A DNA stretch of 64,000 nucleotides, taken from NCBI GenBank assembly GCA_024674815.1, contig GCA_024674815.1_4104.1. One strand, 5' to 3'. A model generated the notes under the pieces. That model had not been told where the DNA came from, searched no databases, and saw nothing but the letters and a program-made list of their open reading frames with translations. Each line of letters opens with the position of its first letter. The stretch's first letter is position 1. Positions 1 through 64,000 of the stretch are shown piece after piece. Position numbers and translations under genes: made by a program. This stretch comes from a phage.

Positions 1-133
1 CGGGCAGCTTCACGGGTAGCGTAGAATTTAGTAATCATGGTATACATCCTATTAGTTGAGTTAGTACTACAAGTTAGAGTCTATTATAAAGTACTATCTG
101 GGCAATGTCAAATAGTACTTTAAATGGATTCTA

Positions 134-457
134 TTACATATCTTTCTTACGTTTTACATCGTAGTATCGAACTGTTATTTCTTTGTTGATCTCTTCCTCG
201 ATGCGGTGAATAACTGTTTCTTTCGGGTTGAAACCTATAACGGTTTCTTTAATGATCTCCAAGCCCGTGTATTCGCCTTGTGTACCGTAACCGTAAGTAA
301 AGGTTTCATGTCCCAGGTCTTCCCAGCGGTCGCCAATTAATGCGGACACGTAGCAAGAGTGGTAAGTGTTACCGTTCCGATCAGTCCAGCGATTAACTTT
401 AATGTCAAAGGAGGTTACGATTTTCAGTTCTACTTTCTGGGTAAGGATCATAGTCAT
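134..457 (-). CDS. hypothetical small protein (107 aa)
   Basis: ATG ORF; promoter+leader-hairpin cassette directly upstream. Confidence 0.55.
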   Translation of the reverse strand: MTMILTQKVELKIVTSFDIKVNRWTDRNGNTYHSCYVSALIGDRWEDLGHETFTYGYGTQGEYTGLEIIKETVIGFNPKETVIHRIEEEINKEITVRYYDVKRKKDM

Positions 458-481
458 TTTTATTTCTCTCTCTTTGTTAGG

Positions 482-541
482 AGGGGAACCATTCCCCTCG
501 CTTGATGTAAACTATTATACAGTACTAAGATACTTTGTCAA
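482..541 (-). promoter_or_regulatory. PeSL-like cassette: sigma70-type promoter + leader stem-loop
   Basis: minus strand reads TTGACA-16nt-TGTATAAT then hairpin AGGGGAAUGGUUCCCCU before SD/ATG. Confidence 0.6.
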
Positions 542-544
542 TAC

Positions 545-727
545 TTATTTTTTGGAAAGTTTACGCATTAATTCTACGCTTTCTTGTGAACGTTTTGCTA
601 CCTGGCAAGCTGCATGGACAGTAAACATTTTTGTATAGTCTGACGCTTTGCCACCGAACCGAGCGGCACGTTCACGGGCACTTGGAACTAATACTATTTC
701 TTTCTTGCAGATAGTGCACTTAGCCAT
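545..727 (-). CDS. small Cys-containing (zinc-ribbon-like) protein, 60 aa
   Basis: internal ATG downstream of hairpin; track start is GTG inside cassette; CxxC motif. Confidence 0.45.
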   Translation of the reverse strand: MAKCTICKKEIVLVPSARERAARFGGKASDYTKMFTVHAACQVAKRSQESVELMRKLSKK

Positions 728-750
728 TTTTATTTCTCTCTCTTTGTTAG

Positions 751-812
751 GAGGGGAACCGTTTCCCCTCACTCGATGTAAACTATTATACAGTACTAAG
801 ATACTTTGTCAA
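751..812 (-). promoter_or_regulatory. PeSL-like cassette (near-identical copy of 482-541)
   Basis: ~85-bp direct repeat flanking CDS 545-727; TTGACA/TGTATAAT/GC hairpin. Confidence 0.6.
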
Positions 813-815
813 TAC

Positions 816-1091
816 TTAATTATTGTAAATGTCGTGAATAGTGATAAAGTTTTTACGACCGTAAACCTGCAAATCAATATCAATGTAGTGCTTATCAAGT
901 ACATCCTCGACGCTTAACGCGGTGTCGTGAATATCTTCGTAGAATTGAGGATCTACAATCTTGCTTAAGTCATCCGGCGTTAACTCATCGTTAAGCCGTT
1001 GAACCGCCTGGATATCTGCTTCACGTTTCCAGTCTTCCAGGTTAGTAGTCAGTACTTGTTCGATTTCGTTAGCTGTCAGTAGAATCCGCAT
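816..1091 (-). CDS. hypothetical protein (91 aa)
   Basis: ATG ORF, promoter at 1125-1152. Confidence 0.55.
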   Translation of the reverse strand: MRILLTANEIEQVLTTNLEDWKREADIQAVQRLNDELTPDDLSKIVDPQFYEDIHDTALSVEDVLDKHYIDIDLQVYGRKNFITIHDIYNN

Positions 1092-1124
1092 TTTAATGTT
1101 TCCTTATCAGTGGTTGATGTAAGT

Positions 1125-1152
1125 ATTATACTCTTTTACTTTCTATTGTCAA
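1125..1152 (-). promoter_or_regulatory. sigma70-type promoter
   Basis: TTGACA-16-TATAAT on minus strand. Confidence 0.5.
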
Positions 1153-1162
1153 ACTATTTTAT

Positions 1163-1234
1163 CAGGGGAGTTTTTCGTATGTCTTACTCCTGGACTACTT
1201 AACGGGGTTACTTGTTTCGTTCCCCGTCCTGATG
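1163..1234 (-). other. conserved ~70-nt structured leader element (copy 1 of 3)
   Basis: two GC stems; near-identical at 11985-12060, diverged copy ~8825-8885. Confidence 0.4.
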
Positions 1235-10580: not shown

Positions 10581-10654
10581 GATTAAAGCTCCTGGATAGT
10601 GTTAACTCGATATAAAGTATTATACAGTACTGAAAACTAATTGCAAGTACTTTT

Positions 10655-12573: not shown

Positions 12574-12660
12574 TTTTATTACTCCAGGTTATAGGCGGGA
12601 AGAGTTCCCGCTCTCGATGTAAAACATTATACGCCTTTAAACATAGTTTGCAAGTACTTT

Positions 12661-13708: not shown

Positions 13709-13823
13709 CGTTTTAATCTCTCTTAATGTGTAGCGGGAAGTGTTCCCGCTCTCGATGTAAAACATTATACGCTTTTATCAGTACGGTGCAAGTACTTTCT
13801 ACAAATACTTTTAAAATAGTTTT

Positions 13824-13919
13824 CTTTCTATATAGGAGTACTATTATTCAGTACTGAATCAATCCAGGGGAACTATCTTTCTATATAGGAGTACTATTAT
13901 TCAGTACTGAATCAATCCA
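13824..13919. repeat. 2 x 43-bp direct repeat
   Basis: unit TCTTTCTATATAGGAGTACTATTATTCAGTACTGAATCAATCCA twice, 53-bp period. Confidence 0.6.
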
Positions 13920-14071
13920 CCAAATCACTACTACACCCCATAAAACGGCCTCAGACGCATTCTAACGCATTAATACACATAAGCTATACATTTGCACCAT
14001 TCCAATCATTCCAGGGCTTTACAGGCCGTTTAAACGCGTTAAATTATTTTCAATTATTTTGTTTTTAGGTA

Positions 14072-14099: not shown

Positions 14100-14103
14100 T
14101 ACT

Positions 14104-14315: not shown

Positions 14316-14317
14316 AG

Positions 14318-50130: not shown

Positions 50131-50137
50131 AATTTCC

Positions 50138-50359
50138 TCAATTAATAATTTCACATTTAACGTGTGGTTTATATAGCATAATTAACCCATTTTTAAGTAC
50201 AATGATTGTTGCTCTGTTAGTAATCGAAACGTTTTTAATTATACTTTTTTTATATGTTTCAACATATTTCTCTTCATAATTTATACATTTAACATATTCT
50301 TTTTGTTTAGCACTTACAACAGTACTGAATAATATCAGTACAAGTACTATATATTTCAT
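50138..50359 (-). CDS. secreted small protein (73 aa)
   Basis: signal peptide MKYIVLVLILFSTVVSA. Confidence 0.5.
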   Translation of the reverse strand: MKYIVLVLILFSTVVSAKQKEYVKCINYEEKYVETYKKSIIKNVSITNRATIIVLKNGLIMLYKPHVKCEIIN

Positions 50360-50411
50360 TACTATACCTTATAAACAAAAAGGAATTCATTTAAGAATTC
50401 CTTTTTTACAA

Positions 50412-50705
50412 TCATTTATCTAACATACCATTGTGCAAACGTTCATATACTTCAGTTCGACGCAAATTCACAATATCTTCTGCGTATTTTAATGTAAATG
50501 CCCATGCTTTTGGATGTACGTTAAGCTTCATACGAATTCGATTTTTCATCAACTCTCCACTTAAACGAATAAATTCGTGTACACCACGACTACCGTATTC
50601 AGTAATTAAATCATTAATGTACATATCACGAAGAGTTTCATCTGCACATTCTTTAACCATTTCTACGTCAGCGACGATGCTTTCATTAACTGAAGTACTG
50701 ATCAT
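50412..50705 (-). CDS. hypothetical protein (97 aa)
   Basis: ATG ORF. Confidence 0.5.
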   Translation of the reverse strand: MISTSVNESIVADVEMVKECADETLRDMYINDLITEYGSRGVHEFIRLSGELMKNRIRMKLNVHPKAWAFTLKYAEDIVNLRRTEVYERLHNGMLDK

Positions 50706-50717
50706 TTTTAATTTACC

Positions 50718-50984
50718 TTATTTAAATTCGACTGTAATTTTATCACCTTCAACTACGAACTTACAGTTGTAGCGACGTGCCATATCCATGTACATATGCT
50801 CAGAGTACCAAGGAACATCAATAATCGGATGCTCTGCATATTGTAGAACTTCACGGTCGCCCACTGTAGTAATGATGAAAGGAATGTTCATCTCTCGTAA
50901 AAACAGTTCAGCACCAGGAGAACGATTAATAAATTCAGTATCATTACGTAAAGTAAATCCATTATATTGTAATTTAAGCTTCAT
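50718..50984 (-). CDS. hypothetical protein (88 aa)
   Basis: ATG ORF. Confidence 0.5.
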   Translation of the reverse strand: MKLKLQYNGFTLRNDTEFINRSPGAELFLREMNIPFIITTVGDREVLQYAEHPIIDVPWYSEHMYMDMARRYNCKFVVEGDKITVEFK

Positions 50985-50998
50985 ATGTTATCCTCTAT

Positions 50999-51343
50999 TC
51001 AATACCATTCTTTAAAACCATTAAGTTCGGCTACGTGAGTGATTATAACACATATAACATTCAGGTCAAGTATAATTTGATCATAATTTAATTTTATACG
51101 ATCATCATTATATGCTCTAAAAACTACATCGTAATCAAAGAAATTTGCGTTTTCATCATTCATTGAAACGATTCGGTATCTACGTCTTCCATCTGTATTG
51201 AATATAGTTAAACACTGTTGAAACTTTCTCATTAACTGTTTAGATAGGATATTATAATATTCAATATCTTTTTGTGAATTACGTGGGTCATCAGGAAAAT
51301 AGAATGAAACAAATTTCTTTAATTCTATTTGAGTTTTATCCAT
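50999..51343 (-). CDS. hypothetical protein (114 aa)
   Basis: ATG ORF. Confidence 0.5.
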   Translation of the reverse strand: MDKTQIELKKFVSFYFPDDPRNSQKDIEYYNILSKQLMRKFQQCLTIFNTDGRRRYRIVSMNDENANFFDYDVVFRAYNDDRIKLNYDQIILDLNVICVIITHVAELNGFKEWY

Positions 51344-51776
51344 ATATTACCTCATGTGTTTCTCTTTTACTTTGTCGGAACTCATCCTTTGCTTCCTTAA
51401 CTGACATGATACGAACTAATTTAGCACTACCGCAATAGTACTGAACCTGATTACGACCAATGTCTACATGGTGGTCTGGAACTTCATATACAGATATAGC
51501 AAACCCAGCACGATGCAATTTACCCAAGTCCATAGTGAAGAATCTGAACAAATCTTTCAAACTTTGACAGCCAAATACCCATCCACTTTTGATTGAATAG
51601 ATCCCATCCTCAGTTGGTTCAGGTTGGAATTGAGAAGGTGTAGTCATAAGCAAACGGTCAAATCCATTTTTAGTACTGTATCTAGTTGAATACCGTGCAA
51701 ACGGACCTACAGTTCGTGCAGGATCTAAGTTAGGTTCAATGTAACTAAATTTAAGTTCAAAACGATATACATACAT
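51336..51776 (-). CDS. hypothetical protein (146 aa)
   Basis: ATG ORF; terminator/promoter element upstream. Confidence 0.55.
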   Translation of the reverse strand: MYVYRFELKFSYIEPNLDPARTVGPFARYSTRYSTKNGFDRLLMTTPSQFQPEPTEDGIYSIKSGWVFGCQSLKDLFRFFTMDLGKLHRAGFAISVYEVPDHHVDIGRNQVQYYCGSAKLVRIMSVKEAKDEFRQSKRETHEVIYG

Positions 51777-51812
51777 AATTAAAATCCTCTAATTTATTAA
51801 GAGAATTATAAC

Positions 51813-51840
51813 AAAAAAGGCTGACCGAAGTCAACCTTTG
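51813..51840 (-). terminator. UUCG-loop terminator/promoter element
   Basis: GGCTGACCGAAGTCAACC. Confidence 0.5.
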
Positions 51841-52022
51841 TTTTGAAGTTCTTGAACTAATTGTCGTACTTCGTTAATATTTTTACACTGCTTTACAGTG
51901 AAGTAATCATACTTACGACCATAGGTTCTTGGGTCATCACCTTCCATATACTGCTGCACATCAAAGATTTGTAAGTAGGGATGCTGCATAACACGAATAT
52001 TATCACTTTGATAAATCAACAT
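51831..52022 (-). CDS. small hypothetical protein (63 aa)
   Basis: first ATG; stop inside terminator hairpin. Confidence 0.35.
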   Translation of the reverse strand: MLIYQSDNIRVMQHPYLQIFDVQQYMEGDDPRTYGRKYDYFTVKQCKNINEVRQLVQELQNKG

Positions 52023-52026
52023 AATA

Positions 52027-52377
52027 TCAATCCTTATATTTACACAAGCCACCAAAACTAGTTTCTTTAGCACCACGACGCATCATAACTAATTTAGCAT
52101 ATTGTGTGCCATTACTATCTTCATATACATCTACTTCAATAAACGCTAAGAAGTTAGGGTCTGTGTCGTTAGAAAACTCAGTGAAGCTAATGTCGCCTAC
52201 TGTATGCTCTTTAACAAACGTATATGATTGTCCATCAATATATACAATATCTCGATCGTCACTATCACCTTGATAGATATGTTTAATATTACCATCTGTA
52301 CAAACTAAACCTTCCAATGGTTCAGCATATGACAATCCACACATTAACATACATACAAAAAATAAAATAATTTTCAT
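52027..52377 (-). CDS. secreted protein (116 aa)
   Basis: signal peptide MKIILFFVCMLMCGLSYA. Confidence 0.55.
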   Translation of the reverse strand: MKIILFFVCMLMCGLSYAEPLEGLVCTDGNIKHIYQGDSDDRDIVYIDGQSYTFVKEHTVGDISFTEFSNDTDPNFLAFIEVDVYEDSNGTQYAKLVMMRRGAKETSFGGLCKYKD

Positions 52378-52379
52378 GA

Positions 52380-52757
52380 TTATTTTCCTCCAACGTTAAG
52401 TGATTTCTTGTACTGATATTCTTTATAAGTACTATACCATATATCACCAACGTAAATCAAGTACCACGTAGCAGGATAAAGAGCCAATCCAGTACTGATG
52501 TATACGAACTTTTGGTCAAGGACATCAAATACATACAGAAGGAAAGTTACTCCCATAATGCAAGAACAAATTAACCACAAGTTATAAGCAATCGAATCGC
52601 AAGCAAAAATAGAATCAAGCTTAGAAATTAGGACATATTTGTTTGTTAAAATGAAATGAATTACTGCAACTAAACAATATCCTGCCATAAAAATAGAAAT
52701 TAAAAAAGACAGAATAATTGGAATATTCAACAACAAAAGTAAAATAGTGTTTACCAT
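52380..52757 (-). CDS. membrane protein (125 aa)
   Basis: multiple hydrophobic helices. Confidence 0.5.
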   Translation of the reverse strand: MVNTILLLLLNIPIILSFLISIFMAGYCLVAVIHFILTNKYVLISKLDSIFACDSIAYNLWLICSCIMGVTFLLYVFDVLDQKFVYISTGLALYPATWYLIYVGDIWYSTYKEYQYKKSLNVGGK

Positions 52758-52768
52758 TTTTTTAAGTC

Positions 52769-53128
52769 CTATATTTCACAGTGTAAGTTCAATTTATCTA
52801 TATCTAGGTCACGGCGTACCGATGAGTCCAAGTAAATTACTATATAGATATCACCATTACCAGTTCTTGGGTCTACAATTAATATTACGTTTGCTAATGT
52901 ACCAGAATCATCTCTATAAGTCGAGATTTTTTTATTACCGATAATACTTTCTACTTTAAAACGATAAATCACACCATCAACAACTATATTTTTACCATTT
53001 CTAGGGTCGTTAGTCAATACATGCCACGTTCCCTTAGTACTACGACAATATGTTTCTGCTGCTGCACCATAACTAAAACATGAAAATAATGCACACACAA
53101 GTGCTATTAATTTTATATAACTCTTCAT
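52769..53128 (-). CDS. secreted protein (119 aa)
   Basis: signal peptide MKSYIKLIALVCALFSCFSYGAAA. Confidence 0.55.
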   Translation of the reverse strand: MKSYIKLIALVCALFSCFSYGAAAETYCRSTKGTWHVLTNDPRNGKNIVVDGVIYRFKVESIIGNKKISTYRDDSGTLANVILIVDPRTGNGDIYIVIYLDSSVRRDLDIDKLNLHCEI

Positions 53129-53206
53129 AACAAACCTCTAACGAGAAATACTTCTGTACTATATATATGTACAGAAGTATTTAATACTATAGAGATATTT
53201 TCACTG

Positions 53207-53533
53207 TTACATCTTATTCGTGAACTTGAATTTGATAATATCAATCCAAATTTTAACATTTCCTGCAAATAGTGCTTTGATTAGCCACATAATTGCAACA
53301 AAGTTCTCAACTAAATCCAAAGTTTTAACTACTGCACCGAGTGGGAAGATAAAACTCAAAATCCATACAATTACTGAAACCACAACGACTGTATAGAAAA
53401 TACGCACAATCGGTGAATCAAGCATAAACAACTCAGAGAACTCTTTTTTATCATTATCATCAGTAATAAAGCATTCGTAAACCAGAAGCCAAATCAGAAT
53501 TAAAGACGGAATTGAAATTAGTACTGATAGCAT
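53207..53533 (-). CDS. membrane protein (108 aa)
   Basis: hydrophobic helices. Confidence 0.5.
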   Translation of the reverse strand: MLSVLISIPSLILIWLLVYECFITDDNDKKEFSELFMLDSPIVRIFYTVVVVSVIVWILSFIFPLGAVVKTLDLVENFVAIMWLIKALFAGNVKIWIDIIKFKFTNKM

Positions 53534-53591
53534 ATTTTTTTACCTCAAGTTTAAGTGTTAAGTTTCAGACTACAGGAACCATTATACAGTA

Positions 53592-53834
53592 CTACGAACG
53601 TTTGTCAACATTTGTTTCTTCAATAAGCATAAGATAACTTAACACGAAGAGTAATACCGAAATAATATCAATAACTGTAAAGCTCACTGGAATGATAATA
53701 GACACCAGTACTAATGCCACGTTTAGCAAGAATACAGTAGTGAGATCTACCATCGTTCGCCTAGTGGCTAATGCCACTAGTGTAGGATAGAACATAAACA
53801 ATAGTGCAACAACAAAACTTAGTACTAGATACAT
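53592..53834 (-). CDS. membrane protein (80 aa)
   Basis: two hydrophobic helices. Confidence 0.45.
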   Translation of the reverse strand: MYLVLSFVVALLFMFYPTLVALATRRTMVDLTTVFLLNVALVLVSIIIPVSFTVIDIISVLLFVLSYLMLIEETNVDKRS

Positions 53835-54487
53835 TTCTTTTTCACCTTAATAAAATTATAACACAAAACCACATCAACATCTGGCTCATCATACAAGTAC
53901 TCAAAACGTTCTTTACTTCGTTTAGTACCGATATACTCACCATTCTTATGCCAACGCCATCCACCATCCTTTGGTTGTTCAGACTTCAGTACTGGGTGAT
54001 AGCACAGGACAATTTCTTCTGGACCTTCAATTAGGTTCTTGTACTTATTCATAATCTGTTCAAGCGTATCTGCTACACCATAAGATGGATGCATAAGATA
54101 AGACTCAGGACGTGGACGTCCACTTGGTAGAATATCATCAGTACTATTAAAGATAGCACGGAAGTCTTCAGATGTGTATAGACTTCCATCTTCATGGATC
54201 ATTGGGTATTCATCCACGACATCGTAATCAGTGAAGTGTTCAATTGCATGTGCAGGTCGATAACCTGCAAGGATACCTGCATGTTTAGTCTGGACAATAG
54301 TCATAACAGATGTATTGTTGTTTACATTTGGATCATGAATTTCAGCCCAAAACGGATGATTTGGATCAAAAGTTGCATTTACCAATGTACACTCACCAAT
54401 GTAGTCAAACATAGTTTCCTTGAAGTTTAAAGAAACTCCACGTAATGCCCAGTCAGGTGAAGTGATGAAATTAAGATTAACTAACAT
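53825..54487 (-). CDS. hypothetical protein (220 aa)
   Basis: first ATG; track start is TTG. Confidence 0.55.
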   Translation of the reverse strand: MLVNLNFITSPDWALRGVSLNFKETMFDYIGECTLVNATFDPNHPFWAEIHDPNVNNNTSVMTIVQTKHAGILAGYRPAHAIEHFTDYDVVDEYPMIHEDGSLYTSEDFRAIFNSTDDILPSGRPRPESYLMHPSYGVADTLEQIMNKYKNLIEGPEEIVLCYHPVLKSEQPKDGGWRWHKNGEYIGTKRSKERFEYLYDEPDVDVVLCYNFIKVKKKCI

Positions 54488-54519
54488 AAGTATCCTCAGA
54501 TGCAATTTTTTTGATGTGG

Positions 54520-54735
54520 TTATTGTATCAAAGATGTATCGATTTGTACAACATTTATTGTAACTATTTCGTACATATAGTCAGGTGCATTGAACTCAGC
54601 ATACCACTCAATGATCTCACAAGCAGCATCAACTTGGTTGTTCGCATTAACACGTCTTGCATAGGTACTAGACATTTTATATCTACCATTTACATACACG
54701 TTATATACACCATGACACCACCACATCTTAGTCAT
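54520..54735 (-). CDS. hypothetical protein (71 aa)
   Basis: ATG ORF. Confidence 0.4.
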   Translation of the reverse strand: MTKMWWCHGVYNVYVNGRYKMSSTYARRVNANNQVDAACEIIEWYAEFNAPDYMYEIVTINVVQIDTSLIQ

Positions 54736-54946
54736 TTATACTAGGCCATACTTTATATTGTAAGTTCTGGTATTGAAATTTACCAATTTCATTTTTCTTA
54801 CGGAATGATTCATCTACTTGAATTTCCGCATCGTACTGACCATCAGCCTGTACAACGTACTTAAATTCTTCTACGTGTGAAAAACGTTGACCTTCACCTT
54901 CTGGTTTATAGACTTGTACTAAACCTTCAACTAGATATAAATTCAT
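54728..54946 (-). CDS. hypothetical protein (72 aa)
   Basis: ATG ORF. Confidence 0.4.
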   Translation of the reverse strand: MNLYLVEGLVQVYKPEGEGQRFSHVEEFKYVVQADGQYDAEIQVDESFRKKNEIGKFQYQNLQYKVWPSIND

Positions 54947-54949
54947 TTA

Positions 54950-55171
54950 TCATTCCTCATCACTTTCAGTTAGCATAATGCTATGTACAGTTTCCACATA
55001 GCGGTGTGTTTTAGGTGTGTTATACTTTGTAATTTCATCAAACAATTTAAACAGTGCATCTACTTCACTAAGAGCACGAATGAATACATCCATCTTGGTG
55101 ACTACTCTGGAAAACCCGCGTATGTTATTAAATTCAGAGACGTGTTCATACACAACATAGTATCTATTCAT
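54950..55171 (-). CDS. hypothetical protein (73 aa)
   Basis: ATG ORF. Confidence 0.4.
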   Translation of the reverse strand: MNRYYVVYEHVSEFNNIRGFSRVVTKMDVFIRALSEVDALFKLFDEITKYNTPKTHRYVETVHSIMLTESDEE

Positions 55172-55686
55172 ATATTAAAAAGTTCCATGAATTCATTGAA
55201 TAAAGAAGTTCTAATGCACATAACAAATTCAAAATCAACATCTATGGTGTCAAGTAGTTTGAACAACTTTGGTACTAATGGATCATTCACCTCAAAGTTA
55301 TGAATCAAACTTTGTTGAAACACATTTTCTTCAGTACTATAATCAATAACAAAATATTCAGCAATACCAGGTGGTGTATAAACATCATATAAAATATGGC
55401 GGTGATGATTTGTTTTAGAACTAGGGGAATATATAAGTTCTATTTCATAAGATTTATCAGCACTGCGTGCGTAACAAACAATATCAGTACTCGTTATTTC
55501 TGAACCATCACTTCTCTCTGAAAAACAAACATCAGCATAGCGTTTTCCAGAGAGATTCAAAAGGTCATGAGTTGTTTTACCATAACAGAAATCAGTTTCA
55601 ATGCGTATCACATCTTGATATTCAATTGGTCTTGTATCGCGGCGTTCACGATTAAACACTAATTTCAACAACTCATTAATATCCAT
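55168..55686 (-). CDS. hypothetical protein (172 aa)
   Basis: ATG ORF. Confidence 0.55.
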   Translation of the reverse strand: MDINELLKLVFNRERRDTRPIEYQDVIRIETDFCYGKTTHDLLNLSGKRYADVCFSERSDGSEITSTDIVCYARSADKSYEIELIYSPSSKTNHHRHILYDVYTPPGIAEYFVIDYSTEENVFQQSLIHNFEVNDPLVPKLFKLLDTIDVDFEFVMCIRTSLFNEFMELFNI

Positions 55687-55886
55687 TATTTCGCCTCGAT
55701 AACCTTAAGGTTAACAAAATCACCTTTTACTTTCATGCATTTGAATTCAGTGCGAGTTTCATCCCCACTATCGCGAGGCCAATGAGTGGCAGAGTAGCAC
55801 TGGTCTGGTGTTTTATATACACCTTCACCAATAGTACGAGTGATTTCACCATTGGTGAGAACTACTGCGAGATATAAAGTAAACAT
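55686..55886 (-). CDS. small hypothetical protein (66 aa)
   Basis: first ATG; track start is TTG. Confidence 0.35.
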   Translation of the reverse strand: MFTLYLAVVLTNGEITRTIGEGVYKTPDQCYSATHWPRDSGDETRTEFKCMKVKGDFVNLKVIEAK

Positions 55887-56039
55887 GATATTCGCCTTAG
55901 AATAATTTATTAATAATAATAGCACCCAACGCAAGAACTGCAATAATTACAGATACCCACATTACTGCATTCACTGTACCAGTAAGTTCTTTATCAAACT
56001 CCCTGCACTTCTTGCGGTAATCTTCCCACTCTTTGTTAT

Positions 56040-56255
56040 TCACACTGCCACTCCTAATAGGTCGGTAGCTTTCTTGAGTACTACGTCAATGGTTTCCAGT
56101 ACTGCACCTTTGTGTTCAATTGATACAATATTATTATAAGTATCAAGGTCCAAGTACTCCATATATTCAGTTTTGAATACACGAACATCAGTACTAGTGA
56201 TTTTAATATCACAACCTTTATCCCAAATAACCTGCATCATTTCATTGGTAGTCAT
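56040..56255 (-). CDS. hypothetical protein (71 aa)
   Basis: ATG ORF. Confidence 0.4.
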   Translation of the reverse strand: MTTNEMMQVIWDKGCDIKITSTDVRVFKTEYMEYLDLDTYNNIVSIEHKGAVLETIDVVLKKATDLLGVAV

Positions 56256-56530
56256 TATTCAACCTTATCATAAACAAGTTTGTGTGTGCTTAGTACTTTG
56301 TTGTGATGTCCAGGGCATTCATATACATACAATCGCTCCTGTCGTTTTTCCCAACCACCACAGATACGACCTGATTGTGTACATACCTCATACTCGTTAA
56401 TAAAAGACTTACCTGTGAATGTACAATCCTGACGAACTAAGTCTTTTGCACTAAACCTGCCGTCATCATTACATGCTGTAAGAAACATTGTACAGAATAC
56501 AAAGACAACTGTCAATAGTTTTTTAATCAT
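56255..56530 (-). CDS. putative lipoprotein (91 aa)
   Basis: MIKKLLTVVFVFCTMFLTAC lipobox-like. Confidence 0.5.
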   Translation of the reverse strand: MIKKLLTVVFVFCTMFLTACNDDGRFSAKDLVRQDCTFTGKSFINEYEVCTQSGRICGGWEKRQERLYVYECPGHHNKVLSTHKLVYDKVE

Positions 56531-56895
56531 TGAACATCACCCCAACGGAAGCCATTCATATAATTCAAATTCACCTCAACGAGTTCATGTGTTTTTGTAC
56601 ACCAAATTGATAGAGTTTTTGTAACATCACCAGGTGAACTTTCATACTTCACACAATACCCTTCAATGCGAAGAGTTTTGTTAGTCCAATGTTGCCACTC
56701 AATCCAAATTTCATTAGGATAATAAACCATATCTTCCTTGAACCTATGGTATTGATCCATCGGTAAGTGACCTTCAACTTCAATTACTTCAGCACTTCGA
56801 ACAAGTTTGTCAAGCTTGTACTTTATCTCAGCAAGATATTCTTCATCATTCAGACGAGTTAATAAATCTGCTGCACGTGTTGTATCAAGGCTCAT
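56527..56895 (-). CDS. hypothetical protein (122 aa)
   Basis: ATG ORF. Confidence 0.5.
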   Translation of the reverse strand: MSLDTTRAADLLTRLNDEEYLAEIKYKLDKLVRSAEVIEVEGHLPMDQYHRFKEDMVYYPNEIWIEWQHWTNKTLRIEGYCVKYESSPGDVTKTLSIWCTKTHELVEVNLNYMNGFRWGDVQ

Positions 56896-56897
56896 TG

Positions 56898-57143
56898 TTA
56901 TTCTCCATGAATTACGGAAGTGTTGATTCGTGTTTTACCGCTAGTGTATCCAGTACTTGTATTTGCATTAGGACAGTACACAGTGTATAAAGTCGCACCA
57001 GCACCATCTTGTTGCATACGATAAATCTTACACCCTGCTTCTTTTAATTCAGCAGGTAGAACAAAATCACTTGTACGTTCTTTGGTAGAAGCATCACATG
57101 CAGTGAGTAGAAATGCGACGAGTACTGCTACAATGTATTTCAT
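56898..57143 (-). CDS. putative lipoprotein (81 aa)
   Basis: MKYIVAVLVAFLLTAC lipobox. Confidence 0.5.
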   Translation of the reverse strand: MKYIVAVLVAFLLTACDASTKERTSDFVLPAELKEAGCKIYRMQQDGAGATLYTVYCPNANTSTGYTSGKTRINTSVIHGE

Positions 57144-57451
57144 TAACGAACCTCCACTTCTTGAGAAAGAGCATGAGTCAGTGCATTTGAATTCGAACCA
57201 TTCATTTCACGCTGACATACAAACATAATGGCATCTTGTACTGAACCTGCGATTTCATACTCACGACCTTCTGGATCAGTTACCAGATGTTCAACGATAC
57301 AACCACCTCTCAGTACAGAAGCACCAGTACTTACACTAATTTTGTAACCTAAGAAATCAAACTGCATACATGCGTCAGTAGGTTTCATCCAATGACCGCT
57401 GTTTTGATTCAAATCGATGATTACAAAACCTTGAGTGTTAGTTTGAAACAT
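57143..57451 (-). CDS. hypothetical protein (102 aa)
   Basis: ATG ORF. Confidence 0.5.
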   Translation of the reverse strand: MFQTNTQGFVIIDLNQNSGHWMKPTDACMQFDFLGYKISVSTGASVLRGGCIVEHLVTDPEGREYEIAGSVQDAIMFVCQREMNGSNSNALTHALSQEVEVR

Positions 57452-57570
57452 AGTTAATTCCTCATTTAATTTAAAAGGGCGGGAACGCAGTGACGAGTAC
57501 GATTATGCTGTCTTTCCTTTCACTGCATTCCCTTTTATATAAAACATAATACTGCTATTATTCAGTACTG

Positions 57571-57864
57571 TCAATCGATATAAGTACCTTTTTTAACATC
57601 ACAGACTTCTTCCATCCAATGTGGATTTTCGTTTTTATCAGTGAAGATTTGTTCTGCTTCTTCTTTTGTTTCAGCTAGGACAATACGATCCCCTTCATCC
57701 AAATCACGGATACGATACACTTTCAGTTCTTGTTTCTTCTCAAGAATATTACACAGTTCACGTGCTTTTTCTTCATCGCACTTCCCTTCATTAGCATAAA
57801 ACCAAATTGCTTTTTTAATAAGGTCACGTTCTTCTTTAGAAAAAGACATAATATTTCCTATCAT
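57571..57864 (-). CDS. hypothetical protein (97 aa)
   Basis: ATG ORF. Confidence 0.5.
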   Translation of the reverse strand: MIGNIMSFSKEERDLIKKAIWFYANEGKCDEEKARELCNILEKKQELKVYRIRDLDEGDRIVLAETKEEAEQIFTDKNENPHWMEEVCDVKKGTYID

Positions 57865-58018
57865 TTGTTAAAGTGGATTTCGTTTGATATAAACATTATA
57901 CAGTACTGATATCTTATGTCAAGTATTAATCACCAAAAATCATCAGATACCCAAACCAACCCACACAGACGACTAAGCTAACAATACCAAAGACAATCTC
58001 TAAAGTCATGTTGTATCC

Positions 58019-58237
58019 TTAATCAACGATTTTATATTCACGATGACCATAGAATCCAGCCTCAAGGATGCGATTACCATCAGCATCTTCCAAATCCCAC
58101 CCACGGGATGTTTCGGCAATAATAGTCATGATGTGACCTCTTGGGAAAATTCCACTCATGGTGGATACATCTTCAAGTAATTGAACTTTCTTACCAACAT
58201 TGGAATTCGGTTTAAACATTTTATGGCCCTTATTCAT
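58019..58237 (-). CDS. hypothetical protein (72 aa)
   Basis: ATG ORF. Confidence 0.45.
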   Translation of the reverse strand: MNKGHKMFKPNSNVGKKVQLLEDVSTMSGIFPRGHIMTIIAETSRGWDLEDADGNRILEAGFYGHREYKIVD

Positions 58238-58412
58238 TGATCACATCAAGTACTTTATCCAGCTTTTTACCAATGCTTTCCTTTGGTTTCTCACCATTCT
58301 GGAATACATTAGTACTGCAATACTCAGGACGCGTATTAGGAAACTTCTCGTTCATCCAGGAGTGACCGTAAACACCCAGCATGATGCCAACGATAAGAAT
58401 GATAATTTGCAT
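58230..58412 (-). CDS. small membrane protein (60 aa)
   Basis: N-terminal hydrophobic helix; 8-nt overlap with downstream gene. Confidence 0.3.
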   Translation of the reverse strand: MQIIILIVGIMLGVYGHSWMNEKFPNTRPEYCSTNVFQNGEKPKESIGKKLDKVLDVINE

Positions 58413-58427
58413 GATAATTTCCTCTGA

Positions 58428-59216
58428 TTAAATGTTAGTAGTATAGTACTTGATTTCGTTTTGAATTGCAAGTTCTATTTGTTTATTGAAAAGAATTCCA
58501 AACTCTTTGATTGATTCACAATCGAATTCAATAGAAAAAGTATACTCTGGTACACGTACATTGTCAATACCCAAATACTCTTTTATGTAAATTTTAATGA
58601 GTTCACATAGTGCAGTACTAAGACATTGAATTTCAAAATGTTTTGCACCTTTGTCAAAATACTTGAATGCATCAATATCACCCACAATAAAACTATTCTT
58701 TAATGTAGTGAATAGGTTCTCAGGAAACACGGTAATAGGTGACATTGATTTAAGAATGTATGTATCTTTGGCATTCTTAATGTACTCAATGAAGCAGTAG
58801 TTAACGTCAGGCTCGATTGAACGATCCGCGTTATGATACCAGTGTTTAAACTCACTGTATTCAGCAAACTTATGCTGGCGTAATGCGTTACAATCTTCAC
58901 ACAGTGCAGTCATGTTCTCTTTATCATTACCGCCCTGAAGACAGTCCAGTACATTATGGTCTAACGTCATGCGTACAAGGCGTTTCCCTTTAAGTACATA
59001 AGGTCTGAATTTATAACGATCTTTAGTACTGTGCTTGTGTAAAGTGAATACTACATTAGATTCACCGCAACAATCACATTTAAAGCCATCACGTGACATT
59101 ACATGAATGAGTTTTCGAGTATTTGGACCAAACTCTGATTTGGTAATGTTACCTACAATTTCTGATGGTTGGTAATATTTTGAATTCCGTCGAATCAGTT
59201 CATCTATAGTGCTCAT
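58428..59216 (-). CDS. HNH endonuclease (262 aa)
   Basis: CDCCG...LDHNV...GGND..ENMTALCEDCNALR (HNH motif). Confidence 0.6.
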   Translation of the reverse strand: MSTIDELIRRNSKYYQPSEIVGNITKSEFGPNTRKLIHVMSRDGFKCDCCGESNVVFTLHKHSTKDRYKFRPYVLKGKRLVRMTLDHNVLDCLQGGNDKENMTALCEDCNALRQHKFAEYSEFKHWYHNADRSIEPDVNYCFIEYIKNAKDTYILKSMSPITVFPENLFTTLKNSFIVGDIDAFKYFDKGAKHFEIQCLSTALCELIKIYIKEYLGIDNVRVPEYTFSIEFDCESIKEFGILFNKQIELAIQNEIKYYTTNI

Positions 59217-59217
59217 T

Positions 59218-59448
59218 TTACATTAATCCTTCTATGCTACAACCAATAAGTACTTTTTTCACTTCAATAACTCGTACCAAATAGAATCCATTTGAAAAGT
59301 TAAAACTATACATTTGTACTAAGGCATCTGCTTCAGATTTCGCACGGATACATGATAGATAAATTTCACGTATATCACCATCCAACGATACTTGTTTCTC
59401 TGCATTGATGACAATAGAACGAATCTCAAAACGAACGCCATAACTCAT
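59218..59448 (-). CDS. hypothetical protein (76 aa)
   Basis: ATG ORF. Confidence 0.4.
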   Translation of the reverse strand: MSYGVRFEIRSIVINAEKQVSLDGDIREIYLSCIRAKSEADALVQMYSFNFSNGFYLVRVIEVKKVLIGCSIEGLM

Positions 59449-59654
59449 TGAGTTTGTCCTACAATAAGCTTTGTGTTAGTATTACTATTGTAACACCACA
59501 TTTGTTCTTTACTAACTGTAATCCAAATATCTTTGTTTACTTGTTCGTATGTACTATCACGTACTGCTATGCATTGATTCATGGAATTCATTGGGGTTAT
59601 TTGTACACCGGAATTAACAGAGAAAGCGACTACTAAAAAGATTACTGAATTCAT
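59445..59654 (-). CDS. secreted small protein (69 aa)
   Basis: signal-peptide-like MNSVIFLVVAFSVNSG. Confidence 0.45.
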   Translation of the reverse strand: MNSVIFLVVAFSVNSGVQITPMNSMNQCIAVRDSTYEQVNKDIWITVSKEQMWCYNSNTNTKLIVGQTQ

Positions 59655-59714
59655 TTGATATTCCTTAATGGTTAATCATCCATCTCTTCGAGATGTCTGT
59701 TCGCTTCTAATACT

Positions 59715-59745
59715 ACGTATTCTACGCGAATGATTAATAACTGTC
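59715..59745 (-). promoter_or_regulatory. sigma70-type promoter
   Basis: TTGACA-17-TAGAAT on minus strand. Confidence 0.4.
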
Positions 59746-60271
59746 AAGGACTTTTAATATTGACGGGATTTGAGGAAGGGATTTTTCTTCCCCCCACAAG
59801 GAGGGAAATTTGACGCTGATGGTATCAGAGCTATTGCATTGAAGATTACTCATAAAGAGTGCGAAAGCGGGTCATCCTGTTTCTCTCTACTTCAGTTTCA
59901 TATGACGGTCTACACTTTTAAACATAGTGTATCTTCATTAAGTATCTATGCAATCAAATACTTAATGTGAGTACTCAAATTTTGGACGCAACTTTCCTGT
60001 ACAAAATTCGATAACTCTCCCTTAGATAATTCGTAAGGTGTTATCCTTATATGTCTATCAAGGAACCACCAGCTATCCTAACGTGGTTCTTTATACAGCC
60101 GCATTGCCGTGAGGGGTTCAAACTATGCCCACATCTAACGGGTTTCTTTTGCTGTTCGCACTGTCGGACTGCTCAACTGCCCTCTACGTTTTCGAGTGGA
60201 TCAGGTACATGAATATCATGCCAACAGAATTGTACAAGATAATTATATCACAAACTTTTACTTCATCCCAT

Positions 60272-60297
60272 AAAAAAAGGTTGGCATAAGCCAACCC
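60272..60297 (-). terminator. intrinsic terminator after sigma-factor gene
   Basis: GGUUGGCuuauGCCAACC + U7 in minus transcript. Confidence 0.55.
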
Positions 60298-60304
60298 TTG
60301 TTCT

Positions 60305-61270
60305 TTAGAAATCTTCGTATTCGTACCCTTTTGCAAGTACTAACTTCTTAAGCTTTTGCATAGCTTCACTGTACTTTCGATGTATTGATGAACGGGATTT
60401 AACATATTTTCCATTATCATCAACAAAACCATTATCAGCAATCTCACGAAGCGTTTCAGGTTCATATTCACCTAGACCATGAACACGCTGGATAATCTCA
60501 CGTTCTTTAGTACTCAATTCGTTGGTCAGTTCATTGATAGCATAACGCAAAGGTGCACGGATACTATCAACATTGAGGTTAAAATCAGAAGCAGGTGAAT
60601 GAATAATGTCACCTAATGTACCATCTGTAACACCGTCTAATGGTGCATCCAGCGAAGTGTATTCGCTTTGAAATAACAAACAATTATTAACATGCTGAAT
60701 CTCAATCCCAGTACCCTCTGAGATTATTTCAGGAGTTGGGCGAACACCATGTTTACGCATATATTCCTGACAGAATCTTTTTACTTTGATCTTATGAACA
60801 CTCATATAACGTGGGAAGTGTACCATATAGTTAGCGTCAGAACTTTCGTTATAGACTGTCATGTAAATACTAGAAGAAGCATAGGTAATGAACTTAACAT
60901 TCTTATTAAGATCAAAGGTTTTTAGTGCTCTCATGAACCCCTCAACACCATATGAAATCTTATCTTCAAATGGGATATAACAAGTACATTTACTTGCTAC
61001 ATCAATAATCAGTCCATAATTGTAACGAACTAACAGTTCAGTGTTTTTCTTTACATTGATACCAGCTTGAATATCACGAATTAGATCTTCATTGGAAACA
61101 TTTGGTGGTCGCTTAAGTGTAATATTATATTTGAAACTGCTTTGTACTTTACCTTCATTATCATCTTTATCTTCAACGAAATCTAAGGCTTCTAGTGTGT
61201 TGACTTCTTCATTAGCAAAACATTCATCCAGAACTTCTTCGGCAATTGTATTTAAATCAAGCTTTTTCAC
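60305..61270 (-). CDS. sigma-70 family RNA polymerase sigma factor (321 aa)
   Basis: region 2 (FITYAS...VHFPRYM), 3 (GVRPTPEI), 4 (EREIIQRVHGL...ETLREIA); GTG start with AGGAGA SD. Confidence 0.65.
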   Translation of the reverse strand: MKKLDLNTIAEEVLDECFANEEVNTLEALDFVEDKDDNEGKVQSSFKYNITLKRPPNVSNEDLIRDIQAGINVKKNTELLVRYNYGLIIDVASKCTCYIPFEDKISYGVEGFMRALKTFDLNKNVKFITYASSSIYMTVYNESSDANYMVHFPRYMSVHKIKVKRFCQEYMRKHGVRPTPEIISEGTGIEIQHVNNCLLFQSEYTSLDAPLDGVTDGTLGDIIHSPASDFNLNVDSIRAPLRYAINELTNELSTKEREIIQRVHGLGEYEPETLREIADNGFVDDNGKYVKSRSSIHRKYSEAMQKLKKLVLAKGYEYEDF

Positions 61271-61291
61271 TTACATCTCCTAATGACGAAA

Positions 61292-61789
61292 TCAAAATCG
61301 ATATACATTAATATTATCATCTGTGAAGCAATCATGGTTGTGCACATCCATGAAAGTACTAAACACTTTATCATATAAAGTTGTATGTTCTTCATGAATA
61401 GCAGCATCTAGCATGTATTCTCCACCACTTCCCATAAAGAAAGTGTAGTCTTCATGTAGGTATTCAAGTTTTTTAATAAACTTTCCTTTAGTTAAAATCA
61501 TATGAATAACATAATCTTTAGAAAGAAGCACACAATGGCAACTTAACTTTCTGTCAGGTATAACTGGTACTTTATTAATTAACCAATCCAGTACTTTATC
61601 AATTTCACTTACTACCCCACTAGCACTGAATAAACGGTCATGTACATATAAAGTTTTTTGATTAACAACTCCATATTGATATTTTGGTCTTAGTGGGAAA
61701 AAACCAAATAAGTTTCGTGGTATAGTTGACGTAACTCTAGAATCGGTAATCAATAAATTTAATCGTTTATCAATATAAACAGTTGTCAT
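61292..61789 (-). CDS. hypothetical protein (165 aa)
   Basis: ATG ORF. Confidence 0.55.
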   Translation of the reverse strand: MTTVYIDKRLNLLITDSRVTSTIPRNLFGFFPLRPKYQYGVVNQKTLYVHDRLFSASGVVSEIDKVLDWLINKVPVIPDRKLSCHCVLLSKDYVIHMILTKGKFIKKLEYLHEDYTFFMGSGGEYMLDAAIHEEHTTLYDKVFSTFMDVHNHDCFTDDNINVYRF

Positions 61790-61790
61790 A

Positions 61791-62210
61791 TTAAACCTTA
61801 TCTAAGAATTTATCGTATATATAAAATTCTTTATCGGTGAATACATTAATTCTAGTATCGAATCTTTGCATCGTGTTCATATACAATGAACTTTTTAAAT
61901 AAAAATACAAAGCAACAAATTCTGATATATGCATATTCTTTTTATTGTTACATAAATTCTTTAGCATTTTGATGCTATCAAATTCTTCTTTATCAAATCT
62001 GTACTGGTAAAAATTATATCTATTGAACTGGCACTCATAGATACGAAGTGCCATTATATCAATACATGCTTGCGATTTACAGTACTTATTCAATACGTCA
62101 TAATCACCCGTACATAATGCTACAAAGATTTTATGTGCAAGTGTAGCTTTTCCTTCAATCGTATGATAACCAAAGAACTTAATGATTAAGTACTGAAGAA
62201 ATCTAAACAT
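61791..62210 (-). CDS. hypothetical protein (139 aa)
   Basis: ATG ORF. Confidence 0.55.
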   Translation of the reverse strand: MFRFLQYLIIKFFGYHTIEGKATLAHKIFVALCTGDYDVLNKYCKSQACIDIMALRIYECQFNRYNFYQYRFDKEEFDSIKMLKNLCNNKKNMHISEFVALYFYLKSSLYMNTMQRFDTRINVFTDKEFYIYDKFLDKV

Positions 62211-62215
62211 TTTAT

Positions 62216-62476
62216 TTAGAATTTCTCCGAAATTACAAGTGTATCATCATAATCATCAGCAATATCATGAAGAACTTTTAAGTTACTTTCACCAGAAACG
62301 CTTTTTACTTCGTTCAAAAGATAGTTTAGATCAACTTTAGTTACTTTTTCTGAATCAAACACACAGAAAGTTAATTCAGCGTTTGGACAGATCTTCTTCA
62401 GATTATCAGCAACCACTTGTTTGAAGTTGAAAGATGGGGAAGCAACTAGGTTAACTGCAACGAGAATAGATTTCAT
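62216..62476 (-). CDS. hypothetical protein (86 aa)
   Basis: ATG ORF. Confidence 0.5.
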   Translation of the reverse strand: MKSILVAVNLVASPSFNFKQVVADNLKKICPNAELTFCVFDSEKVTKVDLNYLLNEVKSVSGESNLKVLHDIADDYDDTLVISEKF

Positions 62477-62550
62477 AATGTTTTCCTTTCTAGCTGATAA
62501 TTAAATTAGGAGCACATTGTACTCCATATTATTTGTTATGTCAAATACTT

Positions 62551-62802
62551 TTAGATACCAAGTGCAGTAGATAACTCTTTACGTTTGTTATATGAATCAG
62601 ATTCAATCTTACTTTTCTTGTTGAAAAGGGATTCGATATCCTTATAGATTGCTTCGATAGATTTAGTTACTACCCATTCTGATTCTTGAAGCATACCTTG
62701 GAGTCGTGCGTACTCAACTTTGATAGTACTGCGAAGTTCTTCACAAACTTCTTCATTCTTAATTAGTGCAGCACTAAGTTCTTTGACCGTATCGATGTTC
62801 AT
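62551..62802 (-). CDS. hypothetical protein (83 aa)
   Basis: ATG ORF. Confidence 0.5.
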   Translation of the reverse strand: MNIDTVKELSAALIKNEEVCEELRSTIKVEYARLQGMLQESEWVVTKSIEAIYKDIESLFNKKSKIESDSYNKRKELSTALGI

Positions 62803-62861
62803 AAGTTCCTTACTCTAATTTGTTTTTAACAAAATAATTATATATAACATACTAAATTATG

Positions 62862-63287
62862 TCAAGTATTTTTAGTACCTTCTTCTGCCATTTTTGTGAT
62901 ATACCAATTAAGTACTGATTTGTGTACCATAAAAAATGTGAATGCAAATATAGCAATAGCTGCTGATGTAACACTATTAGATAATGACCCAAGTTGGATG
63001 TTAGTACCTAAAATAACAATAAATGGATACAACACAATCAATCTACTGTAAGGTTCGTCTCCAGTATCACGGAGAAATCCAAGCCTTTCATGATCCGTAT
63101 CCATAGTGACAATTGGACAGAACATAAGTGCAGACATAAGAGCAATACCAATTTGTGCTACATTGGAAATTGTAAACCACAAAGGATTTAAACCATATGA
63201 AATATTATTTTCTGTACAGTAGTAACCAAACGAATTGAATGCACAAACTAAAAATACAAAAATACAAATCTTATTATAGCCTCTCAT
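62862..63287 (-). CDS. membrane protein (141 aa)
   Basis: multiple hydrophobic helices. Confidence 0.5.
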   Translation of the reverse strand: MRGYNKICIFVFLVCAFNSFGYYCTENNISYGLNPLWFTISNVAQIGIALMSALMFCPIVTMDTDHERLGFLRDTGDEPYSRLIVLYPFIVILGTNIQLGSLSNSVTSAAIAIFAFTFFMVHKSVLNWYITKMAEEGTKNT

Positions 63288-63706
63288 TTGTTTAGTTCCG
63301 TTAATTTTCGTTTAACTTCTAGATCATGAAACTCATCGGCATATGAGTTTTGAACAGTTCTGATGTATTCCAACATAACAAACATAGTTCCACATACCCA
63401 TAGATATGTATAGTAATCAAATACAAATGCATATAACATGCACGGTAATAAAATGAAAGTGTAAACAAAACTATATCGTGTAGTTCCAAATACTTTCAGA
63501 TATAACAAACGTCGATAATCACGGGCAAATGTATTGATGCACACTGAAAATGTAATTAATGTATACCATGAAATACCCTGAATTAAACCTGAAACATTTA
63601 CAAGTTTATGTTCATCGGAAAACCCCAGTGCATTTAGCACTGGAGCCATAACCCAACCAATAATACTAATAAGAAAAAGATATTTTGCATTACTTAGTGT
63701 GAACAT
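63284..63706 (-). CDS. membrane protein (140 aa)
   Basis: multiple hydrophobic helices. Confidence 0.5.
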   Translation of the reverse strand: MFTLSNAKYLFLISIIGWVMAPVLNALGFSDEHKLVNVSGLIQGISWYTLITFSVCINTFARDYRRLLYLKVFGTTRYSFVYTFILLPCMLYAFVFDYYTYLWVCGTMFVMLEYIRTVQNSYADEFHDLEVKRKLTELNK

Positions 63707-63707
63707 A

Positions 63708-63968
63708 TTACTTTAGTCCCCATGCTTTTTTGATTGCATCAACAGAGTTTTGGTCCACTACTTCCTTTTTTTCTGATGTAGTTTGAAGTTTATTAATTAC
63801 ATATTCCTTTGCATCTTTTTCTATCATAAATTTACCATCAACCAACACACCAAAAACTTTAGAATTTCGGGCTGGATATGGATTAATTTCATCAAGAGTA
63901 CGGACTTTCTTATCAACTATAATGGCTTTGATGTAACCAGTTTCAAGTACTGTTGTAATCACAGTCAT
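63708..63968 (-). CDS. hypothetical protein (86 aa)
   Basis: ATG ORF. Confidence 0.45.
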   Translation of the reverse strand: MTVITTVLETGYIKAIIVDKKVRTLDEINPYPARNSKVFGVLVDGKFMIEKDAKEYVINKLQTTSEKKEVVDQNSVDAIKKAWGLK

Positions 63969-64000
63969 TTCAATTGCAACTGGTGAATCTTCCCAATACG

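Follow-up and report, generated by a model that had tools for sequence, protein, structure and literature searches.

Why should phage DNA carry one six-base palindrome, AGTACT, several times in every kilobase? The question is raised by a 64,000-base stretch of contig GCA_024674815.1_4104.1 (the window, by which we mean that whole stretch), in which AGTACT occurs 267 times, or 4.2 times per kb, compared with an expectation of 22.83 (standard deviation 4.57, maximum 33) from 100 dinucleotide-preserving shuffles of the window. It tops all 4096 hexamers for over-representation (12-fold, order-1 model), the runner-up among enriched palindromic hexamers reaches 1.8-fold, and the octamer CAGTACTG is found 56 times where 0.83 are expected. 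An earlier sequence-only reading had judged by eye that there were 3-6 copies per kb and about 20 expected in 64 kb, and both estimates agree with the exact counts (22.8 ± 4.6 in the shuffles). The explanation we favor, to which we assign a probability of roughly 40%, is that AGTACT is a DNA-level tag which selection maintains chromosome-wide in enterobacterial RaK2-like phages and which is read by a putative clade-specific factor with two-fold symmetry. That the signal acts at the DNA level, is maintained by selection, is clade-specific and is built into the architecture of early promoters is well supported.

AGTACT within genes, across the genome and among relatives

The window matches the asteriusvirus genomes E9.1, G17, 121Q, PBECO4 and others at 92-98% identity, and it comes from a RaK2-like jumbo myovirus of Escherichia coli (Asteriusvirus). 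It corresponds to 86.5-150.0 kb of 121Q, reverse-complemented, and is the early region of the phage. Open reading frames were called anew for this analysis, giving 53.2 kb of coding and 10.8 kb of intergenic DNA. As the sequence-only reading had proposed, AGTACT is denser between genes (89 sites, 8.3 per kb) than within them (178 sites, 3.3 per kb), and its further claim that the word is frequent inside genes is borne out in all three frames. Under within-gene synonymous-codon shuffling, which preserves each protein and each gene's own, already skewed codon usage, 54.2 ± 6.2 sites are expected in genes (maximum 72), compared with 179 observed. By frame, AGT|ACT is found 79 times against 29 expected, nAG|TAC|Tnn 38 against 9 and nnA|GTA|CTn 62 against 15, and an artefact of codon or dipeptide usage is rejected by these shuffles both overall and per frame.

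The excess is not confined to the window. The complete 348.5-kb genome of 121Q contains 903 copies of AGTACT where about 100 are expected (9-fold), and every 10-kb bin is enriched (11-65 sites compared with 2-6 expected), including those with replication and virion genes, with a maximum over the promoter-rich early region. In this genome 82% of the sites are intragenic, the late structural genes are enriched 4- to 8-fold, and sites are uniform along gene bodies with small peaks 40-80 nucleotides 5′ of starts and just after stops.

These counts bear on the proposal that the excess merely follows, as a by-product, from promoter consensus, hairpins, codon usage and gene duplication. Some of the window's sites do fit it: the promoter-spacer form AGTACT-N-TAnnnT covers about 35, forms at the edge of the -35 element about 17 and hairpins about 7-10, a 2-kb non-coding block holds 19, and two paralogue arrays (one of 60-amino-acid proteins, the other RCC1-like) together contain 57 coding sites. 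The earlier suggestion that the promoter spacer, hairpins and the TTCAGTACTGAA palindrome explain part of the excess is thus correct, in that they explain a minority of the 267 sites, and the excess beyond the promoter consensus persists when exact k-mer counts are split into coding and intergenic DNA. With intergenic sites excluded and both paralogue arrays removed, 120 coding sites remain compared with 34.2 ± 4.9 under the codon-preserving null, in all three frames, so inflation by the arrays is rejected. AGTACT does stand at a fixed distance from the -10 or -35 element, 5′ of genes and on the gene strand, at about 50 of the 267 sites, where it is a promoter element, but it is not confined to promoters: about 230 copies lie outside promoters, and about 175 intragenic sites lack promoter features (no -10 or -35 partner). 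A promoter-only account is rejected by the codon-preserving null, the intragenic share in 121Q and the enrichment of its late genes, and the by-product proposal as a whole is already refuted, with next to no probability left to it.

Among relatives, AGTACT is enriched in a late-gene segment of Klebsiella phage RaK2 (119 compared with 12 expected, 10-fold), in an early segment of Cronobacter phage GAP32 (253 compared with 13.8, 18-fold) and in two kb of Pectobacterium phage CBB (5 compared with 0.4), and depleted in the more distant Pseudomonas relative PA5oct (1 compared with 14.6 at 150-200 kb). Of 120 viral contigs retrieved by one promoter-type 14-mer, four are enriched, namely 121Q, CBB and a pair of contigs related to the early region of 121Q, all of them RaK2-like; the remaining 116, which are unrelated, have no excess, and the 95 of lowest density among these, when pooled, contain 172 copies where 222 are expected. 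Hence this is a trait of the enterobacterial RaK2-like clade alone. E. coli K-12, sampled over 100 kb, has 15 copies (0.15 per kb), which makes the phage about 17-28 times richer than its host.

These genomes are also shaped by avoidance of palindromes. Twenty-three palindromic hexamers are missing from the window and 24 of 64 from 121Q (up to 47 expected each), GCGC is absent from 121Q (0 compared with 178 expected), and palindromic hexamers have a median observed/expected ratio of 0.53. Such avoidance may explain the reported 'resistance to restriction enzymes' of RaK2 without modification. Restriction-site avoidance in phages likewise leaves its mark at short palindromes, but AGTACT goes the opposite way, being the sole strongly enriched palindromic hexamer with a 9- to 12-fold excess, and it is under-represented, as an avoided restriction target would be, only in PA5oct.

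Selection on the full hexamer, and the AGTACA module

The flanks of AGTACT are weak and two-fold symmetric, with C at -1 and G at +6 favored about 2.5-fold, G at -1 disfavored (0.4- to 0.5-fold), and T at -3 and A at +8 favored, which gives an optimum of T-n-C-AGTACT-G-n-A. This rule is identical in 121Q, RaK2 and GAP32, which argues for one conserved reader. In 121Q, single-substitution variants reach 0.6- to 2.2-fold compared with 9-fold for AGTACT and 44-fold for CAGTACTG. TGTACA stands at 1.0-fold and GGTACC and CGTACG are absent, so a physical property of the flexible GTAC core is rejected and the full hexamer is what is read. Strand polarity of the half-form is absent as well (CAGTAC 562, GTACTG 556).

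Comparison of the window with 121Q (93.8% identity) shows fewer substitutions inside AGTACT sites than elsewhere (3.7% compared with 6.3%, P=1e-5). The same holds at third codon positions (5.9% compared with 10.6%, P=0.003) and in intergenic DNA (3.4% compared with 7.2%, P=0.0003), and 88.8% of sites are intact compared with 76.3% of arbitrary hexamers. Turnover is balanced, with 26 gains and 27 losses. Over greater distances individual positions are not retained: 27% of 121Q sites keep their codon-aligned position in RaK2 and 23% in GAP32, no more than for control hexamers, yet both lineages have the same density. Conservation combined with turnover is what one would expect if many sites were interchangeable and each under weak selection. 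In the replication and late regions the sites are spaced more evenly than chance predicts (coefficient of variation 0.74 and 0.84, P=0.0006 and 0.009), with a mean spacing of 0.4-0.6 kb and largest gaps of about 2 kb compared with about 3 kb expected.

The pressure for AGTACT is strong, to the point of influencing which codons and dipeptides are used. In 121Q, 53% of Ser-Thr dipeptides are written AGT-ACT compared with 15% expected, other contexts that synonymously permit AGTACT realize it in 37-40% of cases, and the Ser-Thr dipeptide is itself over-used (694 compared with 482 expected). Mainly owing to AGTACT, AGT encodes 33% of serines in the phage, more than any other serine codon, and 121Q has an annotated tRNA-Ser with the anticodon ACT, cognate to AGT, at 75.46 kb.

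One region of 121Q, about 12 kb beyond the window start, departs from the symmetric pattern. At 161.8-169.4 kb (7.6 kb) lie about 20 function-unassigned genes with no AGTACT at all, in which AGTACA occurs 41 times on the sense strand and never on the other, compared with 3.6 expected. The copies are spread over all three frames, and the canonical flanks are present on either side of them. The same module in G17 and E9.1 contains 40 AGTACA, no TGTACT and a single AGTACT, and all three genomes have AGTACA at 32 of the 41 positions, so this is a genuine, conserved pattern. The module lacks all 24 hexamers avoided by the phage (8.8 expected), and thus is not naive foreign DNA. A Pfam search of 10 proteins of the module identified no DNA-binding candidate. 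A second AGTACT-free block is listed in Table 1.

These observations raise the possibility of a strand-specific functional unit, (C)AGTAC plus a T or an A, that is recognized in RNA or on a single DNA strand, as in priming, nicking, pausing or RNA processing, with the palindrome being the form that works both ways. The sense-strand copies of the module in 121Q, G17 and E9.1 would fit such a unit, as would the wider asymmetry at 160-190 kb of 121Q (AGTACA 85 compared with 13.9 expected, TGTACT 13 compared with 8.6), and the mean spacing and maximum gap of AGTACT may be on the scale of Okazaki fragments. In the rest of 121Q, however, AGTACA and TGTACT are about equal (197 and 187) and weakly enriched while AGTACT stands at 9-fold, the flanks are reverse-complement symmetric, and a single-strand reader gives no cause for T at position 6 genome-wide. 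We regard a strand-specific unit as unlikely.

A neutral process could instead keep making functionless AGTACT, through bias either in mismatch repair or in the mutations introduced by phage replication or repair, and in accord with this, site positions turn over between genera with density kept; biased repair would likewise make existing sites appear conserved. Such a process is hard to reconcile with one-step neighbors of AGTACT that are not depleted (1.0- to 2.2-fold), with the more-even-than-random spacing, with fixed promoter registers, or with the raised Ser-Thr dipeptide. Furthermore, the two blocks without AGTACT are judged long-resident because all 24 avoided hexamers are missing there too, yet neither contains the word. 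Neutral generation is, in our judgment, very improbable.

AGTACT in promoters, hairpins and the gene arrays

AGTACT is placed precisely in the early promoters of the window. Ten perfect TTGACA-N16/17-TATAAT promoters (12/12 match to sigma-70) lie on the gene strand at 1-16 kb, and the word occupies fixed registers in two promoter classes (Table 1). In class A, aligned contexts show that the last seven bases of the spacer are an invariant AGTACTG while its upstream half varies; the class A word AGTACTGTATAAT is found 15 times and its CATAAT variant AGTACTGnCATAAT seven times. In class B, AGTACT overlaps the upstream edge of a TTGCAA -35 element, and the corresponding word AGTACTTGCAA is found 11 times. 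The class A arrangement resembles the sigma-70 extended -10 element (TGn), which is also a conserved element at a fixed distance immediately 5′ of TATAAT in strong early promoters. The TG of AGTACTG, however, lies at -14/-13 and the canonical one at -15/-14, one base out of register, and the phage element is a palindrome of 6-7 bp that is found at the -35 edge as well, and some 230 times outside promoters. Pairs of sites in dual-site promoters were considered as LexA boxes and rejected, since these need 18 bp start-to-start compared with 20-22 bp in the promoter pairs, and no CAG stands at the right distance downstream of CTG.

Table 1. Coordinates of features described in the text (window positions unless 121Q is named)
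Feature	Position	Strand	Remarks
Class A early promoter, TTGACA-N9-AGTACT-G-TATAAT	514..541	-	AGTACT at 521-526 (-19..-14), abuts -10
Further class A promoters	785-812, 2094-2121, 4244-4271, 4817-4844, 83-111, 15043-15070; near 43235, 53588, 57902
Class B early promoter, AAAAGTACTTGCAA-N16-TATAAT	12626..12658	-	AGTACT at 12653-12658 overlaps -35 upstream edge (~-40..-35)
Further class B promoters	13331, 12092, 11290, 8076, 7756, 5831, 5280, 1268
Dual-site promoters	10619..10651	-	Two AGTACT flank -35 and spacer, 20-22 bp apart (two helical turns)
Dual-site pairs	10626/10646, 10143/10163, 9359/9379, 4251/4273, 4512/4534, 7495/7517, 90/114
Small-gene region	1-13700		~35 small genes, each behind a near-consensus promoter
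5′-leader hairpin, GGGGAA-N4-TTCCCC	1-13700		Directly 5′ of ribosome-binding site
Non-coding block	13709..15708		19 AGTACT; 8 of the 16 window copies of the 10-bp palindrome TCAGTACTGA (up to ATTCAGTACTGAAT)
Divergent sigma-70-like promoters in non-coding block	e.g. 14072-14099	+
Iteron array in non-coding block	14535-14670		~11-17 tandem units of 8-bp TYTAGCCR
Hairpin with Chi on both arms	14839-14858		-15.5 kcal/mol
~60-amino-acid paralogue array	15709-20083	-	~20 tandem genes
RCC1-like beta-propeller array	20615-33467	+	11-12 tandem genes, same terminator hairpin after each
Terminator-type hairpin, GCCAGTA-CTTGA-TACTGGC	21731..21749	+	3′ of RCC1-like gene; AGTACT spans stem and loop
Copies of this hairpin after paralogues	22982, 24163, 26613, 28685, 29899/29907
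Two-copy hairpin, UCCAGUACU-aucA-AGUACUGGA	35349..35370	-	Arms are two AGTACT; -15.1 kcal/mol, z -6.75
Dense gene block, operon-like	35377..64000	-	Sites nearly all intragenic, ~3 per kb; no promoter or hairpin context
Chi octamer GCTGGTGG	1299, 2567, 3517, 4027, 8142, 8204, 14839, 14851, 20831, 28096, 28351, 28609, 32100, 43725, 60066
Second AGTACT-free block	121Q 155.5-159.6 kb (4.1 kb)		Array of ~70-amino-acid genes; no GTAC enrichment; avoided hexamers absent

The window contains many small genes with their own promoters, the array of ~60-amino-acid paralogues, the RCC1-like paralogues, and genes for a sigma-70-family factor, a kinase and endonuclease V. We take the promoter-hairpin cassettes of the small-gene region to be reminiscent of the mobile promoter-stem-loop cassettes of T4-type phages. 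Intragenic AGTACT density peaks in the ~60-amino-acid array (7.2 per kb), and the GC skew of this array is positive, in contrast to other minus-strand genes. The terminator hairpin shared by the RCC1-like genes folds at -11.7 kcal/mol (z -3.9). The non-coding block at 13.7-15.7 kb, which also carries repeated short hairpins of the GCACCC...GGGTGC type, is perhaps an origin, a regulatory region or a set of small-RNA genes; an Rfam scan of the window gave zero matches. The E. coli Chi octamer is present 15 times in the window compared with 0.69 expected and 18 + 11 times in 121Q, mostly on the strand that is sense for the local genes.

Candidate readers and comparison with known systems

If AGTACT is a selected DNA-level tag, a two-fold symmetric reader would bind its sites, and when bound at early promoters would touch RNA polymerase and so control early transcription, either in shut-off or in boosting. 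Some 900 intragenic copies, evenly distributed and at 17-28 times the host density, would concentrate this reader on the phage chromosome, which may serve self-marking or chromosome organization without base modification. Several points weigh against this explanation. Pfam searches of 137 window proteins identified no helix-turn-helix or other DNA-binding family except the sigma factor, PHROGs searches of the 10 largest window proteins gave no DNA-binding candidate, and the RefSeq product names of 121Q include no candidate reader or regulator. An exact 6-bp word with low mismatch tolerance is more suggestive of an enzyme (a methyltransferase or nuclease) than of a typical repressor. The promoter copies are partly kin by descent, as parts of duplicated cassettes, and the host density is based on 100 kb of E. 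coli. Finally, a purely symmetric dimer does not predict the strand-specific AGTACA module, which keeps a half-site, strand-directed or heterodimer reading alive.

A stronger version of the selected-tag explanation, which is tentative and which we rather doubt, makes AGTACT a sequence-encoded identity tag in unmodified jumbo-phage DNA. Being about 20-fold denser than in the host, it would let a phage protein restrict its action, whether in transcription control, protection, replication or compaction, to phage DNA alone, as a sequence counterpart of the self-marking that T4 achieves by base modification, and AGTACA would be the strand-specific dialect of one module. If true, this would be a new viral means of telling the phage's own genome from that of its host without modified bases.

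Exact 6-bp palindromes are typical of type II enzyme specificity, and AGTACT is the ScaI site. It could therefore be the target of a phage DNA methyltransferase or another DNA-modifying enzyme, with its abundance tied to an epigenetic mark, as has been proposed for the cyanobacterial palindrome HIP1, which is similarly hyper-abundant and conserved in coding and non-coding DNA (PMC5861425, PMC4390886). These phages encode two orphan methyltransferases, one C5 (PF00145) and one Dam-like (PF05869), but bisulfite results for RaK2 were reported as CpG methylation (PMC3622015), and AGTACT contains no CpG. A signature of 5-methylcytosine deamination is not seen at AGTACT sites, as only 3 of 27 single-base site differences between the window and 121Q are G>A or C>T. 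DNA of the related phage fEgEco12 is cut as predicted by ten enzymes (PMC13070987), which indicates no bulk hypermodification. Methylation alone also leaves the enrichment, the even spacing and the fixed promoter registers unexplained, and we consider a modification target possible, though somewhat unlikely.

The reader could instead come from the host, if an Enterobacterales-specific protein such as a nucleoid-occlusion-type factor binds the sites and is exploited or titrated by the phage. The trait is found only in relatives infecting Escherichia, Klebsiella, Cronobacter and Pectobacterium and is reversed in the Pseudomonas relative, as would be expected of such a protein. SlmA provides a candidate, since its chromosome-dispersed, palindromic, dimer-read site GTGAGTACTCAC has an identical AGTACT core (PMC3020112). 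However, for SlmA to bind, AGYRCT must have G1, T2 and a purine at position 3 on either side (PMC3020112), and no full site (GTRAGYRCTYAC) is found in the window or in 121Q (0 matches in each). The required flanks are the most disfavored in the phage, with GTG the most depleted of 64 triplets (0.15-fold), so SlmA sites are rejected. The phage density is moreover thousands of times that of the 24-52 SlmA sites per host genome, and a tblastn search for an SlmA homolog in the phage found none, nor is there a TetR homolog. We know of no further host factor with an AGTACT site, and binding by a host protein is in our view decidedly unlikely.

The excess of AGTACT is undescribed in the searchable literature on RaK2, 121Q, CBB, Sharanji, fEgEco12, ScaI together with jumbo phages, and phage iterated palindromes; subscription journals (for example, the GAP32 paper) fell mostly outside this search, so an earlier mention is possible. 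The pressure for the word is relevant to models of codon usage, to gene prediction and to the synthetic recoding of RaK2-like phages. The word would also offer a practical handle, as ScaI cuts the phage every ~0.25-0.4 kb, the site could be used as a portable promoter element, and recoded genomes might be made.

Chi, which is read by RecBCD, and the DNA uptake sequences (DUS) and uptake signal sequences (USS) are over-represented words of bacterial chromosomes that can mark 'self' DNA for a protein machine. AGTACT resembles Chi, KOPS and DNA uptake sequences in having many weakly selected copies whose density is held while positions turn over and coverage stays even. These words are asymmetric and strand-polarized, whereas AGTACT is palindromic and lacks the polarity of a Chi or KOPS word, with the exception of the AGTACA module outside the window. 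To our knowledge, no word of the Chi, KOPS or DUS type has been described for a phage genome.

The closest known phenomenon is HIP1 (GCGATCGC). Both are exact short palindromes, hyper-abundant genome-wide in non-coding DNA and in all frames of coding DNA, conserved above neutral expectation, without a known reader, and present in genomes with orphan methyltransferases (PMC5861425, PMC4390886). The likeness extends to the enrichment of AGTACT by about 10-fold genome-wide (12-fold in the window, 9-fold in 121Q, 10-fold in RaK2, 18-fold in GAP32), to its independence of codon and peptide usage, and to the conservation of sites between related genomes, not between genera. A phenomenon of this kind, unexplained for decades in cyanobacteria, is thus now available in a culturable E. 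coli phage with short generations and easy genetics, and the internal contrast provided by the AGTACT-free, AGTACA-rich module, along with the natural negative control PA5oct, makes the question of what reads an iterated palindrome, and for what reason, directly testable. The two words also differ: HIP1 is 8 bp long, GC-rich, carried on a cellular chromosome and enriched 15- to 300-fold, whereas the phage word is 6 bp long, AT-rich, viral and enriched 9- to 18-fold, and it alone has fixed promoter registers and a strand-specific AGTACA module.

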